In this document: in pieces, positions 12,227 through 64,000 of the stretch
Layout: every line of letters starts with the position of its first letter
Position numbering within the stretch: the stretch's first letter is position 1
Assembly (NCBI RefSeq): GCF_003334815.1
Contig: NZ_QOWO01000006.1
DNA length: 64,000 bases
Origin: Escherichia coli
GTDB lineage: Bacteria; Pseudomonadota; Gammaproteobacteria; Enterobacterales; Enterobacteriaceae
Direction: 5' to 3' (one strand)
Translations under genes and position numbers: made by a program
The notes under the pieces: model-generated
Databases searched by the model: none
What the model saw: only the letters and a program-made list of their open reading frames with translations
Told to the model about the DNA's origin: nothing

Positions 12227-13177
12227 TTATAGTTTGGCGGCAAGAAGATCTTCCAGTTTGCGTTGATCAACGGCGAACAGACGAATGCCTTCAGACAGTT
12301 TTTCTACCGCCATCGCATCCTGATTGTGCTCCCAACGGAACTCCGCTTCGCTCATGGGAGCTGGGCGTGGGAACGTCTGAGAAGGTGGGATTAATTTACG
12401 TACCACTGGCGAAACTTTTTCCTGCAGCTCCTTCAGTAAATTCGGTGCGATAGTCAGTCGATCGCAGCCGGTTAAGGCGAGGATTTGTTCGGTGCGACGG
12501 AAGCTCGCGCCCATCACAATGGTTTCATAGTGGTGTTGCTTATAGTAGTCGTAGATATTGCGCACCGATTTAACGCCCGGATCTTCTTCCACCACATACG
12601 GGTCCATCGGCTTGCGTGCCTGATACCAGTCATAAATACGCCCGACAAACGGCGAAATCAGAAAAACGCCTGCTTCCGCACAGGCCCGTGCCTGTGCAAA
12701 AGAAAACAGCAGCGTCAGGTTGCAGTTAATACCTTCTTTTTCCAGCTCTTCTGCCGCGCGAATTCCTTCCCAGGTCGAAGCCAGCTTGATCAGAATGCGT
12801 GATTTCTCAACGCCTTGTTGCTGATACAAGTCCACCAGATGGCGCGCCTTCTCAATACTCTTTTCTTTATCAAAAGAGAGGCGTGCATCAACTTCTGTTG
12901 ACACGCGACCGGGTACGATTTTGAGGATTTCAGCACCGAAATTGACCGCCAGTTTGTCACACGCTGCGACCACCTGTTGTTCCTGGGTCTTGCCATTTTT
13001 TTTACCCCAGGCGATAGCATCGTCTATTAAATGCTCATATTGTGATAATCCGGCAGCTTTGAGTAACAGCGAAGGATTGGTGGTGGCATCCTGGGGATGA
13101 TAATGGCGAATGGACTCAATATCGCCGCTGTCTGCCACGACAGTGGTGAACTGTTTGATGCCGTCTAACTCGTTCAT
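12227..13177 (-). CDS. talA: Transaldolase A (316 aa)
   Basis: Transaldolase family sequence; [23 protein letters not shown]. Confidence 0.95.
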
Positions 13178-16037: not shown

Positions 16038-16373
16038 ATGGATAAAGAACGCATCATTCAGGAATTTGTGCCCGGCAAACAGGTCACACTGGCGCATCTC
16101 ATCGCGCATCCCGGTGAGGAACTGGCGAAGAAAATCGGCGTTCCGGATGCGGGCGCAATTGGCATTATGACGCTAACTCCCGGCGAAACGGCGATGATCG
16201 CCGGTGATTTAGCGCTGAAAGCCGCTGATGTGCATATCGGTTTTCTCGACCGATTCAGCGGTGCATTGGTGATTTATGGCTCGGTGGGCGCAGTAGAAGA
16301 AGCGTTATCACAAACCGTCAGCGGTTTAGGTCGCTTATTAAATTATACGCTTTGTGAAATGACCAAAAGTTAA
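16038..16373 (+). CDS. eutS: Ethanolamine microcompartment shell protein EutS (111 aa)
   Basis: Track ORF trimmed to the ATG at 16038 ([14 protein letters not shown]); BMC-domain protein, first gene of the eut operon. Confidence 0.9.
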
Positions 16374-16385
16374 TACGAGGCATTC

Positions 16386-16865
16386 ATGAAACGAATTGCG
16401 TTTGTGGGTAGCGTCGGGGCAGGAAAAACAACGTTATTTAATGCGTTGCAGGGGAATTATACCCTCGCCAGAAAAACACAGGCCGTGGAATTTAATGATA
16501 AGGGCGATATTGATACGCCGGGTGAATATTTTAACCATCCCCGCTGGTATCACGCCTTAATTACCACGCTACAGGATGTAGACATGCTGATCTTTGTCCA
16601 TGGCGCAAATGACCCGGAAAGTCGGTTGCCTGCCGGGTTGCTGGATATTGGCGTCAGCAAACGGCAAATCGCCGTCATCAGTAAAACGGACATGCCAGAT
16701 GCTGACGTCGCCGCAACGCGAAAGTTATTGCTTGAGACGGGCTTCGAAGAGCCGATTTTCGAGCTAAACAGCCACGACCCGCAAAGCGTGCAGCAACTGG
16801 TGGATTATCTGGCATCTCTCACCAAACAGGAGGAAGCAGGTGAAAAAACTCATCACAGCGAATGA
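16386..16865 (+). CDS. eutP: EutP (P-loop GTPase/acetate kinase-like)
   Basis: Walker A GSVGAGKTTL; position in eut operon. Confidence 0.9.
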   Translation: MKRIAFVGSVGAGKTTLFNALQGNYTLARKTQAVEFNDKGDIDTPGEYFNHPRWYHALITTLQDVDMLIFVHGANDPESRLPAGLLDIGVSKRQIAVISKTDMPDADVAATRKLLLETGFEEPIFELNSHDPQSVQQLVDYLASLTKQEEAGEKTHHSE

Positions 16866-17541
16866 TATTCGTGAAGCACACGCGCGCGGCGAACAGGCAA
16901 TGTCCGTGGTTCTGCGCGCCAGCATTATTACCCCGGAAGCCCGTGAAGTGGCGGATCTACTGGGTTTTACCATCACCGAATGTGATGAATCGATCCCGGT
17001 AACGGCGTCCGTGCCCGCCAGCGTGCCAGCCGACAAAACCGAAAGCCAGCGCATCCGCGAAACCATCATTGCCCAGCTGCCGGAAGGCCAGTTTACCGAA
17101 AGCCTGGTCGCACAGCTGATGGAAAAAGTGATGAAGGAAAAACAGTCGCTGGAGCAGGGCGCAATGCAGCCGAGCTTCAAATCGGTGACCGGCAAAGGCG
17201 GCATCAAAGTGATTGATGGCAGTAGCGTCAAGTTTGGTCGTTTCGACGGCGCAGAGCCGCATTGCGTGGGCTTGACTGATCTTGTGACCGGAGACGACGG
17301 CAGCAGCATGGCCGCCGGTTTTATGCAGTGGGAGAACGCATTCTTCCCGTGGACCCTGAACTACGACGAAATCGACATGGTGCTGGAAGGGGAGCTGCAT
17401 GTTCGCCACGAAGGCCAAACCATGATCGCCAAAGCAGGCGACGTGATGTTTATCCCGAAAGGCTCCAGCATCGAATTTGGTACGACATCCAGCGTGAAAT
17501 TCCTGTATGTCGCCTGGCCGGCTAACTGGCAATCCCTATGA
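16840..17541 (+). CDS. eutQ: EutQ (cupin-fold acetate kinase); GTG start overlapping eutP by 26 nt
   Basis: MKKLITANDIREAHARGEQ; AGGAGG RBS upstream of the GTG. Confidence 0.9.
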   Translation: MKKLITANDIREAHARGEQAMSVVLRASIITPEAREVADLLGFTITECDESIPVTASVPASVPADKTESQRIRETIIAQLPEGQFTESLVAQLMEKVMKEKQSLEQGAMQPSFKSVTGKGGIKVIDGSSVKFGRFDGAEPHCVGLTDLVTGDDGSSMAAGFMQWENAFFPWTLNYDEIDMVLEGELHVRHEGQTMIAKAGDVMFIPKGSSIEFGTTSSVKFLYVAWPANWQSL

Positions 17542-18341
17542 AAGATTTCATCACCGAAGCATGGCTAAGAGCGAACCATACGCTCAGCGAAGGCGCAGAG
17601 ATCCATCTCCCTGCGGACAGTCGCCTGACGCCCTCTGCCCGGGAGTTGCTGGAAAGCCGCCATCTGCGCATCAAGTTTATTGACGAGCAGGGCCGCCTGT
17701 TTGTTGACGATGAACAGCAGCAGCCGCAGCCCGTTCATGGGCTGACCAGTAGCGATGAACATCCGCAGGCGTGCTGCGAACTGTGTCGCCAGCCGGTGGC
17801 AAAAAAGCCGGATACGCTGACTCACCTGTCGGCGGAAAAAATGGTCGCCAAAAGCGATCCGCGTCTGGGTTTTCGCGCGGTTCTCGACAGCACCATTGCG
17901 CTGGCAGTGTGGCTGCAAATTGAACTGGCGGAACCGTGGCAGCCGTGGCTGGCGGATATCCGTTCGCGTCTTGGCAACATTATGCGCGCCGATGCGCTGG
18001 GGGAACCGCTGGGCTGCCAGGCGATTGTCGGGCTTTCTGACGAAGATCTGCATCGGCTTTCTCATCAGCCGCTGCGCTATCTCGACCACGATCATCTGGT
18101 GCCGGAAGCCAGCCACGGGCGCGATGCTGCGTTGCTCAATCTGCTACGCACCAAAGTGCGGGAAACCGAAACCGTAGCGGCGCAGGTCTTTATCACCCGC
18201 AGCTTTGAAGTATTACGCCCGGACATTTTGCAGGCGCTGAACCGCCTTTCGAGCACGGTCTACGTGATGATGATCCTGAGCGTAACGAAGCAGCCGCTAA
18301 CGGTGAAGCAGATCCAACAACGACTGGGGGAAACGCAATGA
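17538..18341 (+). CDS. eutT: EutT corrinoid adenosyltransferase
   Basis: Sequence and operon position; 4-nt overlap with eutD. Confidence 0.9.
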
Positions 18342-19354
18342 TTATTGAACGTTGTCGTGAACTGGCGTTGCGAGCGCCCGCCAGAGTGGTTTTTCCGGAT
18401 GCGTTAGACCAACGTGTGCTGAAAGCCGCGCAATATTTACATCAACAAGGTCTGGCAACGCCCATTCTGGTCGCCAATCCGTTTGAACTTCGTCAGTTTG
18501 CGCTCAGTCACGGCGTGGCGATGGACGGGCTACAGGTGATTGATCCGCATGGCAACCTCGCAATGCGGGAAGAATTTGCTCATCGCTGGCTGGCCCGCGC
18601 GGGCGAAAAAACGCCGCCGGATGCGCTGGAAAAACTTACCGACCCTCTGATGTTCGCCGCAGCAATGGTCAGCGCCGGTAAAGCGGATGTCTGTATCGCG
18701 GGCAACCTCTCTTCCACGGCAAATGTGCTGCGTGCCGGATTACGCATTATCGGCTTGCAGCCAGGCTGTAAAACGCTCTCTTCCATTTTCCTGATGTTGC
18801 CACAGTACAGCGGCCCGGCGTTGGGCTTTGCCGATTGCAGCGTGGTGCCACAGCCGACGGCGGCGCAGCTGGCGGATATCGCGCTTGCCAGTGCCGAAAC
18901 CTGGCGCGCCATCACCGGAGAAGAGCCGCGCGTGGCGATGCTGTCGTTTTCCAGCAATGGTAGCGCCCGTCACCCCTGTGTTGCTAACGTCCAGCAGGCG
19001 ACAGAAATCGTCCGTGAGCGCGCACCAAAGCTGGTGGTGGATGGCGAGTTACAGTTTGACGCCGCCTTCGTGCCGGAAGTGGCGGCGCAAAAAGCGCCTG
19101 CCAGCCCGCTACAGGGCAAGGCCAATGTGATGGTTTTTCCGTCGCTGGAAGCCGGAAATATTGGTTACAAAATCGCACAACGACTCGGCGGATATCGTGC
19201 CGTCGGGCCACTGATACAAGGACTTGCCGCGCCGATGCACGATCTCTCTCGTGGTTGTAGCGTGCAGGAAATTATCGAGCTGGCGCTGGTGGCAGCTGTG
19301 CCGCGTCAGACAGAAGTGAACCGCGAAAGCAGTTTACAAACACTGGTTGAATGA
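18338..19354 (+). CDS. eutD: EutD phosphotransacetylase
   Basis: PTA-family sequence; operon position. Confidence 0.92.
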
Positions 19355-19392
19355 ACGGTCCCGTTCTGGACCCTGATAAAGAGGAAAGCACA

Positions 19393-19686
19393 ATGGAAGC
19401 ATTAGGAATGATCGAAACCCGGGGCCTGGTTGCACTGATTGAGGCTTCTGACGCGATGGTGAAAGCTGCGCGCGTCAAGCTGGTTGGTGTTAAGCAGATT
19501 GGCGGCGGCCTGTGTACTGCCATGGTTCGTGGTGATGTTGCAGCCTGTAAAGCCGCGACCGATGCAGGTGCCGCAGCGGCACAGCGTATCGGCGAGCTGG
19601 TATCTGTACACGTTATCCCGCGTCCGCACGGCGACCTGGAAGAAGTCTTCCCGATCGGCCTGAAAGGCGATAGCAGCAACCTGTAA
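19393..19686 (+). CDS. eutM: EutM major BMC shell protein (97 aa)
   Basis: Track ORF trimmed to [26 protein letters not shown], a canonical BMC-H domain. Confidence 0.93.
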
Positions 19687-19792
19687 TCACCCTGTGTGAC
19701 GTCGATTCGGGCGTCACGCTCTCTCCTTTTTCATTTTACCTTCTGCGGAGGGTAGGGGGAGCTTTTACCTGAAATACGCCACGGAGGCGGGT

Positions 19793-20080
19793 ATGAAACT
19801 GGCAGTCGTCACTGGACAAATTGTTTGTACCGTACGCCATCACGGACTGGCGCATGACAAATTGCTGATGGTGGAAATGATTGATCCACAAGGTAATCCT
19901 GACGGGCAATGCGCCGTCGCCATCGACAATATTGGCGCGGGAACCGGGGAGTGGGTGTTACTGGTGAGTGGCAGTTCCGCCCGCCAGGCGCATAAAAGCG
20001 AAACGTCACCGGTCGATCTGTGCGTGATTGGCATTGTCGATGAGGTGGTGTCTGGCGGTCAGGTAATTTTCCACAAATAA
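19793..20080 (+). CDS. eutN: EutN BMC vertex (pentamer) protein
   Basis: EutN/CcmL-family sequence MKLAVVTGQIVCTVRH. Confidence 0.92.
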   Translation: MKLAVVTGQIVCTVRHHGLAHDKLLMVEMIDPQGNPDGQCAVAIDNIGAGTGEWVLLVSGSSARQAHKSETSPVDLCVIGIVDEVVSGGQVIFHK

Positions 20081-20091
20081 GGCAGAACATC

Positions 20092-21495
20092 ATGAATCAA
20101 CAGGATATTGAACAGGTGGTGAAAGCGGTACTGCTGAAAATGCAAAGCAGTGACACGCCGTCCGCCGCCGTTCATGAGATGGGCGTTTTCGCGTCCCTGG
20201 ATGACGCCGTTGCGGCAGCCAAAGTCGCCCAGCAAGGGTTAAAAAGCGTGGCAATGCGCCAGTTAGCCATTGCTGCCATTCGTGAAGCAGGCGAAAAACA
20301 CGCCAGAGATTTAGCGGAACTTGCCGTCAGTGAAACCGGCATGGGGCGCGTTGAAGATAAATTTGCAAAAAACGTCGCTCAGGCGCGCGGCACACCAGGC
20401 GTTGAGTGCCTCTCTCCGCAAGTGCTGACTGGCGACAACGGCCTGACCCTAATTGAAAACGCACCCTGGGGCGTGGTGGCTTCGGTGACGCCTTCCACTA
20501 ACCCGGCGGCAACCGTAATTAACAACGCCATCAGCCTGATTGCCGCGGGCAACAGCGTCATTTTTGCCCCGCATCCGGCGGCGAAAAAAGTCTCCCAGCG
20601 GGCGATTACGCTGCTCAACCAGGCGATTGTTGCCGCAGGTGGGCCGGAAAACTTACTGGTTACTGTGGCAAATCCGGATATCGAAACCGCGCAACGCTTG
20701 TTCAAGTTTCCGGGTATCGGCCTGCTGGTGGTAACCGGCGGCGAAGCGGTAGTAGAAGCGGCGCGTAAACACACCAATAAACGTCTGATTGCCGCAGGCG
20801 CTGGCAACCCGCCGGTAGTGGTGGATGAAACCGCCGACCTCGCCCGTGCCGCTCAGTCCATCGTCAAAGGCGCTTCTTTCGATAACAACATCATTTGTGC
20901 CGACGAAAAGGTACTGATTGTTGTTGATAGCGTAGCCGATGAACTGATGCGTCTGATGGAAGGCCAGCACGCGGTGAAACTGACCGCAGAACAGGCGCAG
21001 CAGCTGCAACCGGTGTTGCTGAAAAATATCGACGAGCGCGGAAAAGGCACCGTCAGCCGTGACTGGGTTGGTCGCGACGCAGGCAAAATCGCGGCGGCAA
21101 TCGGCCTTAAAGTTCCGCAAGAAACGCGCCTGCTGTTTGTGGAAACCACCGCAGAACATCCGTTTGCCGTGACTGAACTGATGATGCCGGTGTTGCCCGT
21201 CGTGCGCGTCGCCAACGTGGCGGATGCCATTGCGCTAGCGGTGAAACTGGAAGGCGGTTGCCACCACACGGCGGCAATGCACTCGCGCAACATCGAAAAC
21301 ATGAACCAGATGGCGAATGCTATTGATACCAGCATTTTCGTTAAGAACGGACCGTGCATTGCCGGGCTGGGGCTGGGCGGGGAAGGCTGGACCACCATGA
21401 CCATCACCACGCCAACCGGTGAAGGGGTAACCAGCGCGCGTACGTTTGTCCGTCTGCGTCGCTGTGTATTAGTCGATGCGTTTCGCATTGTTTAA
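20092..21495 (+). CDS. eutE: EutE CoA-acylating acetaldehyde dehydrogenase
   Basis: Aldehyde dehydrogenase family sequence; operon position. Confidence 0.95.
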   Translation: MNQQDIEQVVKAVLLKMQSSDTPSAAVHEMGVFASLDDAVAAAKVAQQGLKSVAMRQLAIAAIREAGEKHARDLAELAVSETGMGRVEDKFAKNVAQARGTPGVECLSPQVLTGDNGLTLIENAPWGVVASVTPSTNPAATVINNAISLIAAGNSVIFAPHPAAKKVSQRAITLLNQAIVAAGGPENLLVTVANPDIETAQRLFKFPGIGLLVVTGGEAVVEAARKHTNKRLIAAGAGNPPVVVDETADLARAAQSIVKGASFDNNIICADEKVLIVVDSVADELMRLMEGQHAVKLTAEQAQQLQPVLLKNIDERGKGTVSRDWVGRDAGKIAAAIGLKVPQETRLLFVETTAEHPFAVTELMMPVLPVVRVANVADAIALAVKLEGGCHHTAAMHSRNIENMNQMANAIDTSIFVKNGPCIAGLGLGGEGWTTMTITTPTGEGVTSARTFVRLRRCVLVDAFRIV

Positions 21496-21505
21496 GGAGT
21501 AACAG

Positions 21506-22342
21506 ATGGCGCACGACGAACAATGGCTCACCCCACGTCTGCAAACGGCGGCAACGCTGTGTAACCAGACGCCCGCCGCGACGGAATCTCCGCTGTGGCT
21601 GGGGGTGGATCTGGGCACCTGCGATGTGGTGTCGATGGTTGTCGACCGCGACGGTCAGCCAGTGGCGGTATGCCTCGACTGGGCCGATGTGGTTCGCGAC
21701 GGCATCGTCTGGGATTTCTTCGGCGCTGTCACCATTGTTCGTCGCCATCTCGACACGCTCGAGCAGCAATTCGGTCGTCGTTTTAGCCATGCGGCGACTT
21801 CATTTCCTCCAGGTACGGACCCGCGTATTTCCATCAACGTGCTGGAATCTGCCGGACTGGAAGTGAGCCATGTGCTGGATGAGCCAACCGCAGTTGCGGA
21901 TCTGCTGCAACTGGACAACGCCGGTGTAGTGGATATCGGCGGCGGCACTACCGGCATTGCCATCGTGAAAAAGGGCAAGGTGACGTACTCGGCGGATGAA
22001 GCCACCGGCGGACATCACATCTCTCTGACTCTCGCCGGAAATCGCCGTATTTCGCTGGAAGAGGCGGAGCAGTACAAGCGCGGTCACGGTGAAGAGATTT
22101 GGCCTGCGGTGAAACCGGTGTACGAAAAAATGGCGGACATTGTCGCCCGGCATATTGAAGGGCAGGGCATTACTGATTTATGGCTGGCGGGCGGCTCTTG
22201 TATGCAACCGGGCGTGGCGGAACTGTTTCGCAAACAATTCCCGGCGTTACAGGTGCATTTACCGCAGCACAGTTTGTTTATGACCCCGCTGGCGATCGCC
22301 AGTAGTGGGCGAGAGAAAGCGGAGGGGCTATATGCAAAATGA
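21506..22342 (+). CDS. eutJ: EutJ (DnaK/actin-fold chaperone-like)
   Basis: Sequence and operon position. Confidence 0.92.
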   Translation: MAHDEQWLTPRLQTAATLCNQTPAATESPLWLGVDLGTCDVVSMVVDRDGQPVAVCLDWADVVRDGIVWDFFGAVTIVRRHLDTLEQQFGRRFSHAATSFPPGTDPRISINVLESAGLEVSHVLDEPTAVADLLQLDNAGVVDIGGGTTGIAIVKKGKVTYSADEATGGHHISLTLAGNRRISLEEAEQYKRGHGEEIWPAVKPVYEKMADIVARHIEGQGITDLWLAGGSCMQPGVAELFRKQFPALQVHLPQHSLFMTPLAIASSGREKAEGLYAK

Positions 22343-23519
22343 ATTGCAGACCGCGCTCTTTCAGGCGTTCGATACCCTGAATCTGCAACGGGTAAAAACA
22401 TTTAGCGTTCCACCGGTGACGCTTTGCGGTCCGGGCTCGGTGAGCAGTTGCGGACAGCAAGCGCAAACGCGTGGGCTGAAACATCTGTTCGTGATGGCAG
22501 ACAGCTTTTTGCATCAGGCAGGGATGACCGCCGGGCTGACGCGTAGCCTGACCGTTAAAGGTATCGCCATGACGCTCTGGCCATGTCCGGTGGGCGAACC
22601 GTGCATTACCGACGTGTGTGCAGCCGTGGCGCAGTTGCGTGAGTCAGGCTGTGATGGGGTGATCGCGTTTGGCGGCGGCTCGGTGCTGGATGCGGCGAAA
22701 GCCGTGACGTTGCTGGTGACGAACCCGGATAGCACGCTGGCAGAGATGTCAGAAACCAGCGTTCTGCAACCGCGCTTGCCGCTGATTGCCATTCCAACTA
22801 CCGCAGGAACCGGCTCTGAAACCACCAATGTAACGGTGATTATCGACGCGGTGAGCGGGCGCAAGCAGGTGTTAGCCCATGCCTCGCTGATGCCGGATGT
22901 GGCGATCCTCGACGCCGCATTGACCGAAGGTGTGCCGTCGCATGTCACGGCGATGACCGGCATTGATGCGTTAACCCATGCCATTGAAGCATACAGCGCC
23001 CTGAACGCTACACCGTTTACCGACAGTCTGGCGATTGGTGCCATTGCGATGATTGGCAAATCGCTGCCGAAAGCGGTGGGCTACGGTCACGACCTTGCCG
23101 CGCGCGAGAGCATGTTGCTGGCTTCATGTATGGCGGGAATGGCGTTTTCCAGTGCGGGTCTTGGGTTGTGCCACGCGATGGCGCATCAGCCGGGCGCGGC
23201 GCTGCATATTCCGCACGGTCTCGCGAACGCCATGTTGCTGCCAACGGTGATGGAATTTAACCGGATGGTTTGTCGTGAACGCTTTAGTCAGATTGGTCGG
23301 GCACTGCGAACTAAAAAATCCGACGATCGTGACGCTATTAACGCGGTAAGTGAGCTGATTGCGGAAGTTGGGATTGGTAAACGACTGGGCGATGTTGGTG
23401 CGACATCTGCGCATTACGGCGCATGGGCGCAGGCCGCGCTGGAAGATATTTGTCTGCGCAGTAACCCGCGTACCGCCAGCCTGGAGCAGATTGTCGGCCT
23501 GTACGCAGCGGCGCAATAA
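22332..23519 (+). CDS. eutG: EutG iron-containing alcohol dehydrogenase (395 aa)
   Basis: Track ORF trimmed to MQNELQTALFQAFDTLNLQ; 11-nt overlap with eutJ. Confidence 0.92.
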   Translation: MQNELQTALFQAFDTLNLQRVKTFSVPPVTLCGPGSVSSCGQQAQTRGLKHLFVMADSFLHQAGMTAGLTRSLTVKGIAMTLWPCPVGEPCITDVCAAVAQLRESGCDGVIAFGGGSVLDAAKAVTLLVTNPDSTLAEMSETSVLQPRLPLIAIPTTAGTGSETTNVTVIIDAVSGRKQVLAHASLMPDVAILDAALTEGVPSHVTAMTGIDALTHAIEAYSALNATPFTDSLAIGAIAMIGKSLPKAVGYGHDLAARESMLLASCMAGMAFSSAGLGLCHAMAHQPGAALHIPHGLANAMLLPTVMEFNRMVCRERFSQIGRALRTKKSDDRDAINAVSELIAEVGIGKRLGDVGATSAHYGAWAQAALEDICLRSNPRTASLEQIVGLYAAAQ

Positions 23520-23521
23520 AT

Positions 23522-23705
<184 letters not shown>

Positions 23706-23735
23706 ATAAATAACAACTAACAGGGAGTAAAGGCG

Positions 23736-24962
23736 ATGGGAATTAACGAAATCATCATGTACATCATGATGTTCTTTATGCTGATAGCTGCCGTAGACAG
23801 GATCCTGTCGCAGTTCGGCGGTTCTGCTCGTTTCCTCGGTAAGTTCGGTAAAAGTATCGAAGGATCAGGCGGTCAGTTCGAAGAAGGCTTTATGGCAATG
23901 GGCGCACTGGGCCTGGCGATGGTCGGTATGACCGCGCTGGCACCGGTACTGGCTCACGTTCTCGGGCCGGTAATTATTCCGGTTTACGAAATGCTCGGCG
24001 CTAACCCATCGATGTTCGCCGGAACACTGCTGGCGTGCGATATGGGCGGCTTCTTCCTCGCCAAAGAGCTGGCGGGCGGCGACGTAGCCGCGTGGCTATA
24101 CTCTGGGTTAATTCTCGGGTCGATGATGGGGCCAACGATTGTGTTTTCCATTCCGGTGGCGCTCGGCATTATCGAACCTTCTGACCGTCGTTATCTGGCG
24201 CTCGGCGTGCTGGCGGGCATTGTGACCATTCCGATTGGTTGTATCGCTGGTGGTCTGGTTGCTATGTACTCCGGTGTGCAGATCAACGGCCAGCCGGTGG
24301 AATTCACTTTCGCCCTGATCCTGATGAACATGATCCCGGTGATCATTGTTGCGATTCTGGTGGCGCTGGGGCTGAAATTCATCCCGGAAAAAATGATCAA
24401 CGGCTTCCAGATCTTCGCCAAATTCCTCGTTGCATTGATCACCCTCGGTCTTGCCGCTGCGGTAGTGAAATTCCTGCTTGGCTGGGAACTGATCCCCGGT
24501 CTGGATCCTATCTTTATGGCCCCTGGCGATAAACCCGGTGAGGTGATGCGCGCCATTGAAGTTATCGGTTCTATCTCCTGCGTTCTGTTAGGGGCGTATC
24601 CGATGGTGCTGCTGCTGACTCGCTGGTTTGAAAAACCGCTGATGAGCGTCGGTAAAGTACTGAATATGAACAACATCGCGGCAGCCGGCATGGTGGCAAC
24701 GCTTGCCAACAACATCCCGATGTTCGGCATGATGAAGCAGATGGATACCCGCGGCAAAGTCATCAACTGCGCCTTCGCCGTTTCCGCTGCTTTCGCCCTG
24801 GGCGACCACTTAGGCTTCGCCGCTGCCAACATGAACGCCATGATCTTCCCGATGATTGTCGGCAAGTTGATCGGCGGCGTAACGGCGATTGGCGTGGCGA
24901 TGATGCTGGTGCCAAAAGAAGACGCGACCGCGACTAAAACCGAAGCGGAGGCACAATCGTGA
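23736..24962 (+). CDS. eutH: EutH ethanolamine permease
   Basis: Polytopic membrane protein; operon position. Confidence 0.93.
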   Translation: MGINEIIMYIMMFFMLIAAVDRILSQFGGSARFLGKFGKSIEGSGGQFEEGFMAMGALGLAMVGMTALAPVLAHVLGPVIIPVYEMLGANPSMFAGTLLACDMGGFFLAKELAGGDVAAWLYSGLILGSMMGPTIVFSIPVALGIIEPSDRRYLALGVLAGIVTIPIGCIAGGLVAMYSGVQINGQPVEFTFALILMNMIPVIIVAILVALGLKFIPEKMINGFQIFAKFLVALITLGLAAAVVKFLLGWELIPGLDPIFMAPGDKPGEVMRAIEVIGSISCVLLGAYPMVLLLTRWFEKPLMSVGKVLNMNNIAAAGMVATLANNIPMFGMMKQMDTRGKVINCAFAVSAAFALGDHLGFAAANMNAMIFPMIVGKLIGGVTAIGVAMMLVPKEDATATKTEAEAQS

Positions 24963-26362
24963 ACACTCGCCAGCTATTGAGCGTCGGTATCGATATCGGC
25001 ACCACCACCACCCAGGTGATTTTCTCCCGGCTGGAGCTGGTTAACCGTGCGGCGGTGTCGCAGGTGCCGCGCTACGAATTCATTAAACGCGAAATTAGCT
25101 GGCAAAGTCCGGTGTTCTTTACCCCTGTCGATAAACAGGGCGGTTTAAAAGAAGCGGAACTGAAAACCTTAATACTCGAGCAATATCATGCTGCGGGTAT
25201 TGAGCCGGAAAGCGTTGATTCTGGTGCCATCATCATCACCGGTGAAAGCGCGAAAACCCGCAATGCTCGCCCGGCGGTGATGGCGCTCTCTCAGTCGCTG
25301 GGCGATTTTGTCGTTGCCAGCGCCGGGCCGCACCTCGAATCCGTGATCGCCGGTCACGGAGCCGGGGCACAAACCCTTTCTGAACAACGGCTGTGTCGGG
25401 TACTGAATATCGACATCGGCGGTGGCACCGCGAACTACGCCCTGTTCGATGCCGGAAAAATCAGCGGCACTGCCTGCCTCAACGTCGGTGGTCGCCTGCT
25501 GGAAACCGACAGCCACGGGCGCGTGGTTTACGCTCATAAACCGGGGCAGATGATTGTGGATGAGTGCTTCGGTGCAGGCACCGACGCCCGTTCGCTGACC
25601 GGCGCGCAGCTGGTGCAGGTGACCCGGCGGATGGCAGAACTGATTGTCGAAGTGATTGACGGAACGCTCTCACCGCTCGCGCAGGCATTGATGCAAACCG
25701 GTTTGCTGCCCGCAGGTGTTACGCCCGAAATCATTACGCTTTCTGGCGGCGTGGGCGAATGTTATCGCCACCAGCCCGCCGACCCGTTCTGTTTTGCCGA
25801 TATTGGCCCGCTGCTGGCAACTGCGCTGCATGACCATCCGCGCCTGCGTGAGATGAACGTACAGTTTCCGGCGCAAACCGTGCGCGCCACGGTGATTGGC
25901 GCGGGCGCGCATACCCTTTCGCTCTCTGGCAGCACAATCTGGCTTGAGGGCGTACAACTGCCGCTGCGCAATTTGCCGGTGGCGATCCCGATTGATGAAA
26001 CGGATCTGGTGGGGGCCTGGCAACAGGCGCTGATTCAGCTGGATCTTGATCCCAAAACTGACGCGTACGTGCTGGCGCTTCCCGCCTCGCTGCCTGTGCG
26101 TTACGCCGCGGTACTGACGGTCATCAACGCGTTGGTCGATTTCGTCGCGCGTTTTCCGAATCCGCATCCCCTGCTGGTGGTGGCCGGGCAGGACTTTGGT
26201 AAAGCTCTGGGCATGTTGTTGCGCCCACAGCTACAACAACTCCCGTTGGCAGTCATTGACGAAGTGATTGTCCGCGCGGGGGACTATATCGACATTGGTA
26301 CGCCTCTTTTTGGCGGATCGGTTGTGCCGGTGACGGTGAAATCACTCGCATTTCCTTCCTGA
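24959..26362 (+). CDS. eutA: EutA ethanolamine ammonia-lyase reactivase (GTG start)
   Basis: MNTRQLLSVGIDIGTTTTQVIFSRL. Confidence 0.93.
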   Translation: MNTRQLLSVGIDIGTTTTQVIFSRLELVNRAAVSQVPRYEFIKREISWQSPVFFTPVDKQGGLKEAELKTLILEQYHAAGIEPESVDSGAIIITGESAKTRNARPAVMALSQSLGDFVVASAGPHLESVIAGHGAGAQTLSEQRLCRVLNIDIGGGTANYALFDAGKISGTACLNVGGRLLETDSHGRVVYAHKPGQMIVDECFGAGTDARSLTGAQLVQVTRRMAELIVEVIDGTLSPLAQALMQTGLLPAGVTPEIITLSGGVGECYRHQPADPFCFADIGPLLATALHDHPRLREMNVQFPAQTVRATVIGAGAHTLSLSGSTIWLEGVQLPLRNLPVAIPIDETDLVGAWQQALIQLDLDPKTDAYVLALPASLPVRYAAVLTVINALVDFVARFPNPHPLLVVAGQDFGKALGMLLRPQLQQLPLAVIDEVIVRAGDYIDIGTPLFGGSVVPVTVKSLAFPS

Positions 26363-26373
26363 GGGAACGACTT

Positions 26374-27735
26374 ATGAAACTAAAGACCACATTGTTCGGC
26401 AATGTATATCAGTTTAAGGATGTAAAAGAGGTGCTGGCTAAAGCCAACGAACTGCGTTCGGGGGATGTGCTGGCGGGCGTCGCAGCGGCAAGCTCACAGG
26501 AGCGCGTGGCGGCAAAGCAGGTGTTGTCGGAAATGACCGTAGCGGACATCCGCAATAATCCGGTGATTGCCTATGAAGATGACTGCGTGACGCGGCTGAT
26601 TCAGGACGATGTTAACGAAACGGCCTACAACCAGATTAAAAACTGGAGCATCAGCGAACTGCGTGAGTATGTGCTGAGCGATGAAACCAGCGTGGACGAC
26701 ATTGCCTTTACCCGCAAAGGGCTGACCTCGGAAGTGGTCGCGGCGGTAGCGAAGATTTGCTCCAACGCGGACCTGATCTACGGCGCGAAGAAAATGCCGG
26801 TAATCAAAAAGGCCAATACCACCATCGGTATTCCGGGCACCTTTAGCGCCCGTTTGCAGCCAAATGACACCCGTGACGACGTGCAAAGTATCGCCGCGCA
26901 AATCTACGAAGGGCTTTCCTTCGGGGTGGGCGATGCGGTGATCGGCGTTAACCCGGTGACTGACGACGTGGAAAACTTAAGCCGCGTGTTGGATACCATC
27001 TATGGCGTGATCGACAAATTCAACATCCCAACTCAGGGCTGTGTACTGGCGCACGTCACCACCCAGATCGAAGCGATCCGTCGTGGCGCACCGGGCGGGC
27101 TGATTTTCCAGAGTATCTGTGGCAGCGAAAAAGGGCTGAAAGAGTTTGGCGTGGAGCTGGCGATGCTCGACGAAGCGCGCGCAGTGGGCGCGGAGTTCAA
27201 CCGTATCGCCGGGGAAAACTGCCTCTACTTCGAAACCGGACAAGGCTCTGCGCTATCCGCTGGCGCTAACTTCGGCGCAGACCAGGTAACGATGGAAGCA
27301 CGTAACTACGGGCTGGCGCGTCATTACGATCCGTTTATCGTCAACACCGTGGTCGGCTTTATTGGGCCGGAGTATCTCTACAACGACCGCCAGATTATCC
27401 GTGCTGGCTTAGAAGATCACTTTATGGGCAAGCTGAGCGGCATCTCTATGGGCTGTGACTGCTGTTATACCAACCACGCTGACGCTGACCAGAACCTCAA
27501 CGAAAACCTGATGATCCTGCTCGCCACCGCAGGCTGCAACTACATCATGGGGATGCCGCTGGGTGATGACATCATGCTCAACTACCAGACCACCGCATTC
27601 CACGATACCGCCACTGTGCGTCAGTTACTCAACCTGCGCCCGTCACCGGAGTTTGAACGCTGGCTGGAAAGCATGGGCATTATGGCAAACGGTCGCCTGA
27701 CCAAACGGGCGGGCGATCCGTCACTGTTCTTCTGA
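26374..27735 (+). CDS. eutB: EutB ethanolamine ammonia-lyase large subunit
   Basis: MKLKTTLFGNVYQFKDVKEVLAKANELRSGD; begins 12 bp after the eutA stop. Confidence 0.96.
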   Translation: MKLKTTLFGNVYQFKDVKEVLAKANELRSGDVLAGVAAASSQERVAAKQVLSEMTVADIRNNPVIAYEDDCVTRLIQDDVNETAYNQIKNWSISELREYVLSDETSVDDIAFTRKGLTSEVVAAVAKICSNADLIYGAKKMPVIKKANTTIGIPGTFSARLQPNDTRDDVQSIAAQIYEGLSFGVGDAVIGVNPVTDDVENLSRVLDTIYGVIDKFNIPTQGCVLAHVTTQIEAIRRGAPGGLIFQSICGSEKGLKEFGVELAMLDEARAVGAEFNRIAGENCLYFETGQGSALSAGANFGADQVTMEARNYGLARHYDPFIVNTVVGFIGPEYLYNDRQIIRAGLEDHFMGKLSGISMGCDCCYTNHADADQNLNENLMILLATAGCNYIMGMPLGDDIMLNYQTTAFHDTATVRQLLNLRPSPEFERWLESMGIMANGRLTKRAGDPSLFF

Positions 27736-27755
27736 TGACGCGGAGATAACATATC

Positions 27756-28643
27756 ATGGATCAAAAACAGATTGAAGAAATTGTACGCAGCGTGATGGCG
27801 TCAATGGGACAAGCGGCCCCCGCGCCGTCAGAAGCAAAGTGCGCCACCACCAACTGTGCGGCACCGGTGACCTCGGAAAGCTGTGCGCTGGATTTAGGTT
27901 CCGCTGAAGCAAAAGCGTGGATTGGTGTTGAAAATCCGCATCGCGCAGACGTATTAACAGAACTGCGCCGCAGCACCGTGGCCCGCGTTTGTACCGGTCG
28001 TGCCGGTCCGCGTCCACGTACGCAGGCGCTGCTGCGTTTCCTGGCCGATCACTCTCGTTCGAAAGATACCGTACTGAAAGAAGTGCCGGAAGAGTGGGTG
28101 AAAGCGCAGGGCTTGCTGGAAGTACGCTCTGAAATTAGCGACAAAAATCTCTACCTGACTCGCCCGGATATGGGCCGCCGCCTGTGTGCAGAAGCTGTTG
28201 AAGCGCTGAAAGCGCAGTGTGTTGCCAATCCGGACGTACAGGTCGTTATTTCTGATGGCCTGTCAACTGATGCGATCACCGTGAACTACGAAGAGATCCT
28301 GCCACCGCTGATGGCGGGCCTGAAACAGGCCGGGCTGAAAGTCGGTACACCATTCTTTGTTCGTTATGGTCGCGTGAAGATTGAAGATCAGATCGGTGAG
28401 ATCCTCGGCGCGAAAGTAGTGATCCTGCTGGTGGGCGAACGTCCGGGGTTGGGTCAGTCAGAAAGCCTCTCCTGCTACGCCGTTTACTCGCCGCGTATGG
28501 CGACCACCGTTGAGGCCGATCGCACCTGTATCTCTAACATTCACCAGGGCGGCACGCCGCCGGTTGAAGCCGCAGCCGTCATTGTGGATTTGGCGAAACG
28601 TATGCTGGAGCAGAAAGCATCCGGCATCAACATGACCCGATAA
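27756..28643 (+). CDS. eutC: EutC ethanolamine ammonia-lyase small subunit
   Basis: Sequence and operon position. Confidence 0.95.
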
Positions 28644-28652
28644 GGAGGCATC

Positions 28653-29312
28653 ATGCCAGCTTTAGATTTGATTCGACCGTCTGTCACCGCTATGCGGGTG
28701 ATTGCCTCCGTTAACGCCGATTTTGCGCGTGAACTGAAATTGCCGCCGCATATTCGTAGCCTCGGTCTGATTTCTGCCGACTCCGATGACGTCACCTACA
28801 TTGCCGCTGATGAAGCGACCAAGCAGGCGATGGTGGAAGTGGTGTATGGCCGCTCGCTATATGCGGGCGCTGCACACGGCCCGTCACCGACTGCCGGTGA
28901 AGTGCTGATTATGCTTGGTGGGCCAAACCCGGCGGAAGTGCGTGCAGGTCTGGATGCGATGATTGCGCATATTGAAAATGGCGCAGCTTTCCAGTGGGCT
29001 AATGACGCGCAAGATACGGCATTCCTGGCACATGTAGTTTCGCGTACCGGTTCTTATCTCTCATCAACCGCCGGGATCACGCTTGGCGATCCGATGGCGT
29101 ATCTGGTGGCACCGCCGCTGGAAGCGACCTATGGCATTGATGCAGCCCTGAAGTCTGCCGACGTACAGCTGGCGACCTATGTCCCGCCACCGTCTGAAAC
29201 CAACTACTCGGCAGCATTTTTAACCGGTAGCCAGGCAGCGTGTAAAGCAGCCTGTAACGCCTTTACCGATGCAGTGCTGGAAATCGCGCGTAATCCAATC
29301 CAGCGTGCGTAA
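28653..29312 (+). CDS. eutL: EutL BMC shell protein (tandem BMC domain)
   Basis: Sequence and operon position. Confidence 0.93.
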
Positions 29313-29324
29313 CGGAGGTTGCCG

Positions 29325-29825
29325 ATGATCAATGCACTGGGATTGCTGGAAGTGGACGGCATGGTCGCCGCGATAGATGCAGCGGATGCCATGCTCAAAG
29401 CAGCTAACGTTCGTCTGCTCAGTCACGAAGTGCTTGACCCTGGTCGCTTAACGCTGGTGGTGGAAGGCGATCTGGCGGCGTGTCGTGCGGCGCTGGACGC
29501 AGGTTGTGCTGCCGCGATGCGTACCGGGCGTGTCATCAGCCGCAAGGAGATCGGTCGGCCAGACGATGACACCCAGTGGCTGGTTACTGGCTTTAACCGC
29601 CAGCCGAAGCAACCCGTAAGGGAACCCGACGCGCCAGTTATCGTCGCGGAATCTGCTGACGAGTTGTTGGCGCTGTTAACATCAGTACGTCAGGGAATGA
29701 CGGCAGGAGAAGTGGCTGCCCACTTTGGCTGGCCGCTGGAAAAAGCCAGAAATGCGCTCGAACAGCTCTTTTCTGCCGGGACGTTACGTAAACGCAGTAG
29801 TCGTTATCGTCTCAAGCCCCATTAA
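29325..29825 (+). CDS. eutK: EutK BMC shell protein with C-terminal helix-turn-helix-like domain (166 aa)
   Basis: ATG at 29325 (MINALGLLEVDGMVAAIDA) preceded by GGAGG; the track ORF begins two codons upstream at a TTG. Confidence 0.9.
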   Translation: MINALGLLEVDGMVAAIDAADAMLKAANVRLLSHEVLDPGRLTLVVEGDLAACRAALDAGCAAAMRTGRVISRKEIGRPDDDTQWLVTGFNRQPKQPVREPDAPVIVAESADELLALLTSVRQGMTAGEVAAHFGWPLEKARNALEQLFSAGTLRKRSSRYRLKPH

Positions 29826-29870
29826 CCTGTCGGAGGTGCCGGGTGTCCTACAACACCCGGCATTAACATC

Positions 29871-30923
29871 ATGAAAAAGACCCGTACAGCCAATTTGCAC
29901 CATCTTTATCATGAACCCTTACCCGAAAACCTGAAGCTCACGCCGAAGGTCGAAGTGGATAATGTTCATCAACGACAGACAACGGATGTCTATGAACATG
30001 CTTTAACGATTACCGCCTGGCAGCAGATTTACGATCAGCTGCATCCGGGCAAGTTTCATGGTGAATTTACGGAAATTCTACTCGATGATATTCAGGTTTT
30101 TCGTGAATACACCGGTCTGGCGCTGCGTCAGTCGTGCCTGGTCTGGCCGAACTCGTTCTGGTTTGGCATTCCGGCGACGCGCGGTGAGCAGGGATTTATC
30201 GGTTCGCAATGTCTGGGAAGCGCGGAAATCGCCACCCGCCCTGGTGGCACTGAATTTGAACTGAGCACGCCGGATGATTACACGATCCTGGGCGTGGTGC
30301 TTTCTGAAGATGTCATCACCCGGCAGGCTAACTTTTTGCATAACCCGGATCGGGTATTACATATGTTGCGTAACCAGTCGGCGCTGGAAGTGAAAGAGCA
30401 GCATAAAGCCGCGCTGTGGGGCTTTGTCCAACAGGCGCTGGCGACGTTTTGCGAGAATCCGGAAAATCTCCATCAGCCTGCAGTGCGAAAAGTGCTGGGG
30501 GATAATTTGCTAATGGCGATGGGGGCCATGCTGGAAGAAGCGCAACCAATGGTGACGGCGGAAAGCATCAGTCATCAGAGTTACCGTCGATTGCTTTCCC
30601 GCGCCCGTGAATATGTGCTGGAAAACATGTCCGAACCGGTGACGGTGCTGGATTTGTGTAATCAACTGCATGTCAGCCGCCGCACGCTACAAAACGCGTT
30701 TCACGCTATTTTAGGCATTGGCCCGAACGCGTGGCTGAAACGCATTCGCCTGAACGCCGTACGCCGCGAACTGATAAGTCCGTGGTCGCAAAGTATGACG
30801 GTAAAAGACGCCGCCATGCAGTGGGGATTCTGGCATCTGGGGCAATTTGCCACGGATTACCAGCAGCTGTTTTCCGAGAAGCCGTCACTGACGCTGCATC
30901 AGCGGATGCGGGAGTGGGGGTGA
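29871..30923 (+). CDS. eutR: EutR AraC-family activator of the eut operon
   Basis: C-terminal AraC-type HTH; last gene of the operon. Confidence 0.93.
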
Positions 30924-30928
30924 GGGAG

Positions 30929-31831
<903 letters not shown>

Positions 31832-35460: not shown

Positions 35461-35489
35461 AGATTGTTGACCAAGTGCGCGTTGTACAC

Positions 35490-35605
35490 GCCGGATGCGG
35501 CGTGAACGCCTTATCCGGCCTACGAAATCGTGCTAATTCAATATATTGTGGGCTCCACGTAGGCCTGATAAGCGTAGCGCATCAGGCAGTTTTGCGTTTG
35601 TCAGC
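35490..35605. repeat. BIME (REP - linker - inverted REP) between yfeX and yfeW
   Basis: GCCGGATGCGGCGTGAACGCCTTATCCGGCCTAC ... GTAGGCCTGATAAGCGTAGCGCATCAGGC. Confidence 0.85.
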
Positions 35606-35646
35606 ACTCTCAGACCAGCCAGTAACATTACTGACTGGCCTTTTTA

Positions 35647-46381: not shown

Positions 46382-46398
46382 GGATTAATAGCATCGGA

Positions 46399-46520
<122 letters not shown>

Positions 46521-46569
46521 AAACAAAGCGCACTTTTTTAACAGTTGTTGCTGCCGACAAATGCAGTAT

Positions 46570-63564: not shown

Positions 63565-63724
63565 ACATTGGTGGGTCGTGCAGGATGACTCGCTTCGCTC
63601 GCCCTTCGGGCCGTCGCCGCGAGCGGCTCCGTTGTTTCGCTGCGCTCAACTCAAACCTGCTGCAGGTTCGAATCTTTGAGTATCGCAGATAGTAAAAAAG
63701 CGCCTTTAGGGCGCTTTTTTACAT

Positions 63725-63800
63725 TGGTGGGTCGTGCAGGATTCGAACCTGCGACCAATTGATTAAAAGTCAACTGCTCTACCAACTGAGCTAACGACCC
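63725..63800 (-). tRNA. lysV: tRNA-Lys (anticodon UUU), 76 nt
   Basis: Reverse complement gives GGGTCGTTAGCTCAGTTGGTAGAGCAGTTGACTTTTAATCAATTGGTCGCAGGTTCGAATCCTGCACGACCCACCA. Confidence 0.95.
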
Positions 63801-63803
63801 GAG

Positions 63804-63879
63804 TGGTGGGTGATGACGGGATCGAACCGCCGACCCCCTCCTTGTAAGGGAGGTGCTCTCCCAGCTGAGCTAATCACCC
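63804..63879 (-). tRNA. valY: tRNA-Val (anticodon UAC), 76 nt
   Basis: Reverse complement gives GGGTGATTAGCTCAGCTGGGAGAGCACCTCCCTTACAAGGAGGGGGTCGGCGGTTCGATCCCGTCATCACCCACCA. Confidence 0.95.
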
Positions 63880-63935
63880 ACTTCGGTACTTCACATTTTT
63901 ACAAGAAATTTAGCTGGCGAGAAAGTGGTGGGTGA

Positions 63936-64000
63936 TGACGGGATCGAACCGCCGACCCCCTCCTTGTAAGGGAGGTGCTCTCCCAGCTGAGCTAATCACC
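63936..64000 (-). tRNA. valX: tRNA-Val (anticodon UAC), 5' end truncated by the window edge
   Basis: Same sequence as the preceding tRNA-Val up to the window end. Confidence 0.9.

Follow-up and report, generated by a model that had tools for sequence, protein, structure and literature searches.

An uninterrupted eutA-eutB junction with an empty CPZ-55 attachment site in Escherichia coli closely related to K-12

The DNA analysed (the window) is a 64,000-nt stretch of E. coli sequence that holds a eut operon, the features of which are listed in Table 1 together with those of the junction between eutA and eutB. Junction boundaries were read directly from the sequence: the eutA stop codon TGA occupies 26360-26362 and the eutB start codon ATG occupies 26374-26376, and the letters run ...ATTTCCTTCCTGA GGGAACGACTT ATGAAA... 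or, taken more widely, ...GCATTTCCTTCCTGA GGGAACGACTT ATGAAACTAAAG... The earlier note on this DNA had placed eutB 12 bp after the eutA stop, a figure that holds as the offset from the last base of the stop codon to the first base of the start codon; as a spacer length it does not hold, the spacer being 11 nt. Both genes (eutA, 1404 nt; eutB, 1362 nt) show 0 nucleotide differences from their counterparts in MG1655, b2451 and b2441 respectively. A Shine-Dalgarno-like GAGGG at 26361-26365 overlaps the eutA stop codon, ends 8 nt ahead of the eutB ATG and probably serves as the eutB ribosome-binding site. In a scan of the whole window for RNA families and tRNAs, no match fell at the eutA-eutB junction, all matches lying elsewhere.

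Table 1. Coordinates of the eut operon and of the eutA-eutB junction in the window
Feature	Position	Strand	Basis or details
Complete 17-gene eut operon, eutS P Q T D M N E J G H A B C L K R	16038-30923	+	MG1655 genes mapped onto the window
eutA (ethanolamine ammonia-lyase reactivase)	24959-26362	+	GTG start, TGA stop, 467 aa
Extended imperfect att similarity, 23 nt of the eutA 3' end	26340-26362	+	Aligns to both MG1655 junctions
Single core copy CTTCCTGA, unoccupied attB of CPZ-55/intZ-type elements	26355-26362	+	Comparison with the MG1655 and CE0021a junctions
eutA-eutB spacer GGGAACGACTT	26363-26373	+	11 nt, read from the sequence
eutB (ethanolamine ammonia-lyase large subunit)	26374-27735	+	ATG start, 453 aa

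The operon was delimited by its first and last mapped genes, eutS (16038-16373) and eutR (29871-30923). All 17 genes of the EUT1-type operon of E. coli/Salmonella are present in order, on one strand and at full length; each agrees with MG1655 in length and in start and stop codons and has 0 internal stops, as the earlier note had described in reporting 17 contiguous, full-length eut genes. The RefSeq annotation of near-identical loci gives the identical 17 gene names. Across the whole operon the window differs from MG1655 at 4 nucleotides, and of the 17 Eut proteins EutP alone is altered in amino-acid sequence, by Y70F and M124I. The former arises from the SNP at 16594 in eutP (16386-16865) and is absent from the compared genomes; M124I (SNP 16757) is common to the wild isolates 52F4 and NCTC9041. 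Intergenic distances in the operon are short or overlapping except for eutM-eutN (106 nt) and eutG-eutH (216 nt), the latter containing REP-type sequence. Within the eutG-eutH spacer (23520-23735), two 85-nt REP-type repeats lie at 23521-23605 and 23621-23705, and a match to the Rfam family naRNA4 (REP325-type nucleoid-associated RNA) extends over 23574-23655 with a score of 71.8 bits.

In the MG1655 reference sequence (NC_000913.3), the cryptic prophage CPZ-55 is annotated at 2558691-2565480 (6,790 bp) between eutB (b2441) and eutA (b2451), with intZ and yffL-yffS encoded on the opposite strand from eut. The earlier note had placed the prophage at this position, and correctly so: MG1655 was checked for a contiguous eutA-eutB junction and does not have one, the 6,790-bp element lying there instead. 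The final 8 nt of eutA, including the stop codon, form a core (CTTCCTGA) that flanks CPZ-55 on either side in MG1655; PMC6379469 also reported this 8-bp duplication, giving it as TCAGGAAG. BLAST alignment of the window to the MG1655 flanks covered positions 1-26362 at 99.977% identity and 26340-64000 at 99.968%, and the two alignments overlap at 26340-26362. This 23-nt segment is a gapped match to the eutB-proximal end of CPZ-55, the eutB-side copy having 4 single-base gaps. In the window a single core is found at the eutA stop, and on both sides its flanking sequence is collinear with that of occupied sites. BLAST of the window against CPZ-55 gave this att similarity as its only match, running on through the shared spacer into the beginning of eutB; neither an integrase nor any other part of an element was detected by it at or near 26355-26362, and sequence reading and BLAST found no element remnant or scar at the junction. 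By these comparisons, 26355-26362 is the empty chromosomal attB of the CPZ-55/IntZ tyrosine integrase element family, and the operon of the window is whole because CPZ-55 is absent. An intact junction is a structural fact of the sequence, so chance is not the relevant null. Integration of CPZ-55 keeps eutA intact, as well as the 11-nt spacer with GAGGG before eutB, and separates the two genes by 6.8 kb. MG1655 and BW25113 are very similar to the window in their flanks (99.97-99.98% identical), in eutA and eutB (nucleotide-identical) and in the core at the eutA stop, but carry the 6,790-bp prophage between the two genes, which the window does not.

The frequency of the two states was estimated among complete E. 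coli genomes. Of the 5,424 genomes with the locus, 4,965 (~91.5%) contain at least 80% of a 2-kb query, centred on the junction, at a single place; this count joins pieces up to ~1.5 kb apart and therefore excludes larger insertions only, so that the share of strictly identical junctions can be at most ~91.5%. The intact eutA-eutB junction is the majority state of E. coli, is already documented and is nothing unusual. Full-length CPZ-55 was present in 213 of 5,426 complete genomes, and nearly all of the carriers sampled were recognisable K-12 laboratory derivatives, the rest having no informative label; MG1655 variants, MC4100, MC1061, J53 and NBRC 3301 were among those sampled. A further ~200 complete genomes possess only an intZ-like integrase (83-95% identity) with non-CPZ-55 cargo.

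One such non-CPZ-55 element was found in the bovine isolate CE0021a (NZ_CP119006.1), where a different, 10.9-kb intZ island occupies the same CTTCCTGA core and has the core at both ends. The island lies between eutB and eutA (20081-30966 of locus L008) and carries an intZ of ~86% nucleotide identity, an AIPR-family (abortive-infection-like) gene, IS1 and yffS. Its position at the same core agrees with the label "prophage insertion hot spot" given to the eutA/eutB site in a report on UPEC U71 (PMC6652756). The intZ islands of CE0021a and UPEC U71 share the attB core of the window; theirs is occupied and that of the window is empty. A separate oddity at this junction was seen in AG100 (NZ_LN832404.1), a K-12 derivative without CPZ-55 that has a 91-bp tandem duplication (12924-13105 of locus L004, corresponding to window positions 26285-26375) running from the eutA 3' end across the spacer to the second base of eutB, from which a 24-aa "EutA" fragment is annotated in RefSeq. 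The same duplication is present in LT615377 and LT615378. It could be a real att-site rearrangement or an assembly artefact.

The earlier note had also taken the empty site as a sign of a non-MG1655 strain background. That conclusion is right, the window differing from MG1655 over 64 kb by 12 SNPs and 2 single-base indels besides lacking the prophage between eutA and eutB, but the logic is unsound, as many K-12 strains share the empty site. When a 10.7-kb query from XL10-Gold (K-12 alleles, intact junction) was searched, the 60 highest-ranking records included no fewer than 57 exact single-piece matches, a lower bound only on the number of K-12-haplotype genomes without CPZ-55. The exact matches include W3110 (NC_007779.1), EMG2, DH1, DH5alpha/NEB 5-alpha, C600, RR1, RV308, ER2796/ER3413 and S17-1, as well as several records that bear the name MG1655. 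Published accounts describe EMG2 and W3110 as strains that "have lost" CPZ-55 (PMC9997739), list "CPZ-55 (6.8 kb, precise excision)" for ER2796 (PMC4444293) and give XL1-Blue as lacking it (PMC11148124). XL10-Gold has the MG1655 allele at every SNP site that distinguishes the window, yet its junction is identical to that of the window. The presence of an intact junction in W3110, EMG2, DH1, DH5alpha, C600 and XL10-Gold means that an empty site is no proof of a non-K-12 background. For strain typing, CPZ-55, when present, is a marker of some K-12 sublines (MG1655, BW25113, MC4100, MC1061 and J53), and its absence is uninformative, being shared by W3110, EMG2, DH1, DH5alpha, C600 and about nine-tenths of E. 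coli genomes. RefSeq records CP010438-CP010444 and CP097883, labelled "K-12 MG1655", have an intact junction and no CPZ-55; the label is thus no guarantee of the reference configuration at this locus.

The case for a non-K-12 origin comes from the flanking SNP haplotype and not from the junction. At 6 sites (13654, 16742, 16757, 33759, 35087 and 39974) the window has the allele of 52F4 and NCTC9041, and the other allele is carried by MG1655, XL10-Gold and, where its locus covers the site, AG100. At 22805 and 32170 the window matches 52F4 only, and 4 SNPs (16594, 34013, 43889 and 46142) are private to the window among the compared loci. XL10-Gold is the same as MG1655 at all 12 SNP sites, as is AG100 at the 9 sites that its locus covers; at the sites by which the K-12 lineage can be told from close wild relatives in this region, the window thus does not have the K-12 alleles. 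Among the 5,426 complete E. coli genomes none matches the window exactly: even the best, compared over 24 kb, differ at 4 positions. All of these top matches are isolates from animals, humans or the environment, and K-12 records are not among them. The closest sequences found, 52F4 (from a calf) and NCTC9041, likewise have an uninterrupted operon and show 6-8 differences in ~49.8 kb; the window differs from them in adding its 4 private SNPs. The source of the window, judged by this haplotype, is a wild-type-like E. coli outside the K-12 laboratory lineage, although its relationship to K-12 is extremely close (99.97-99.98% identity to MG1655).

The whole is very probably explained as an ordinary uninterrupted eut operon with an empty CPZ-55/IntZ attB, in a wild-type-like, near-K-12 strain outside the laboratory lineage; no observation speaks against this reading. 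With nothing integrated at 26355-26362, eutA and eutB lie 11 nt apart. From published work on eut regulation, the 17 genes would be transcribable as one unit from a promoter upstream of eutS, and translation of eutA and eutB may be coupled, as established eut biology and the spacing would suggest. Most probably no element ever entered the site in this lineage, or one was present and has since been lost. Because precise excision regenerates the same attB, sequence alone cannot separate a site that was never occupied from one that was vacated, and the strongest of the alternatives is that CPZ-55 or a related intZ element was once present and was removed by precise integrase-mediated excision, as in several K-12 sublines. 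Precise loss of CPZ-55 is documented within K-12 for ER2796 (PMC4444293) and for EMG2 and W3110 (PMC9997739), XL10-Gold, of K-12 haplotype, shares the exact junction of the window, and the background of the window is the closest kind of K-12 relative. Prior occupancy is nevertheless considered unlikely, as the flanking haplotype is that of wild isolates whose sites are also empty and as full CPZ-55 was confined almost entirely to K-12 laboratory derivatives among the carriers sampled; the window also has no scar, though precise excision would leave none.

A CPZ-55-free K-12 laboratory strain such as W3110, DH5alpha, DH1 or C600 was also considered as the source. The eut locus of W3110, EMG2, DH1, DH5alpha and XL10-Gold has the junction and the 17 full-length genes of the window, with a 2-kb junction region that is 100% identical, and the identity to MG1655 (99.97-99.98%) and the many K-12 strains with exactly this junction would fit such a source. 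The SNP haplotype decides against it: relative to these strains, 12 SNP sites over 64 kb carry an allele in the window that is not the K-12 one (all 12 distinguish it from MG1655 and XL10-Gold, and the 9 covered sites from AG100), 6 of the 12 alleles are those of wild isolates, and K-12 records are absent from the best 24-kb matches. A K-12 source was rejected on these grounds despite the identical junction, and very little probability is assigned to it. That the contiguous junction is an assembly artefact, in which an inserted element was collapsed or dropped, has nothing direct in its favour beyond the odd 91-bp duplication of AG100 as a sign that assemblies can misbehave here, and is hardly credible given that the junction is base-for-base identical in thousands of independent complete genomes.

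The window strain, on the preferred reading of an ordinary uninterrupted operon, would be expected to be eut+, with ethanolamine use and Eut microcompartments, unlike MG1655 and BW25113; this expectation is drawn from published experiments that show the cost of the prophage in BW25113. In BW25113, ethanolamine elicits a response of eutS and eutR but not of eutB, and microcompartments are not formed (PMC7617246). The prophage is reported to abolish ethanolamine use in this strain, and its scarless removal gives a eut+ strain (PMC11334477). Jallet et al. compared the eut+ strain W3110 with BW25113 eut::prophage (PMC11334477). Strains with an intact operon that are eut+ comprise W3110 and BW25113 eut+ (PMC11334477) and Nissle (PMC7617246). 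A more far-reaching proposal, considered highly unlikely, is that the window strain ranks among the closest wild relatives of K-12 and keeps the state before CPZ-55 was acquired. If true, such a relative could help to date or trace the acquisition of CPZ-55 by K-12, and could also help to show that IntZ-type islands with defence cargo, like the AIPR-family gene of CE0021a, generally use the eutA 3' end as a landing site.

Several features were recorded elsewhere in the window. A ~140-nt intergenic repeat occurs in two copies that are 89% alike, at 35473-35611 in the yfeX/pbp4b spacer and at 46394-46535 in the cysM/yfeS spacer, the second overlapping a match to Rfam ES036 (CssrF) at 46442-46484. 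The minus strand of 63569-64000 contains a tRNA-Lys(UUU) gene and two tRNA-Val(UAC) genes, corresponding to lysV, valY and valX, with valX cut by the window end. An RtT element (63569-63694) lies in the same segment, and MG1655 has 1 nt more in the valY-lysV spacer (window position 63803).
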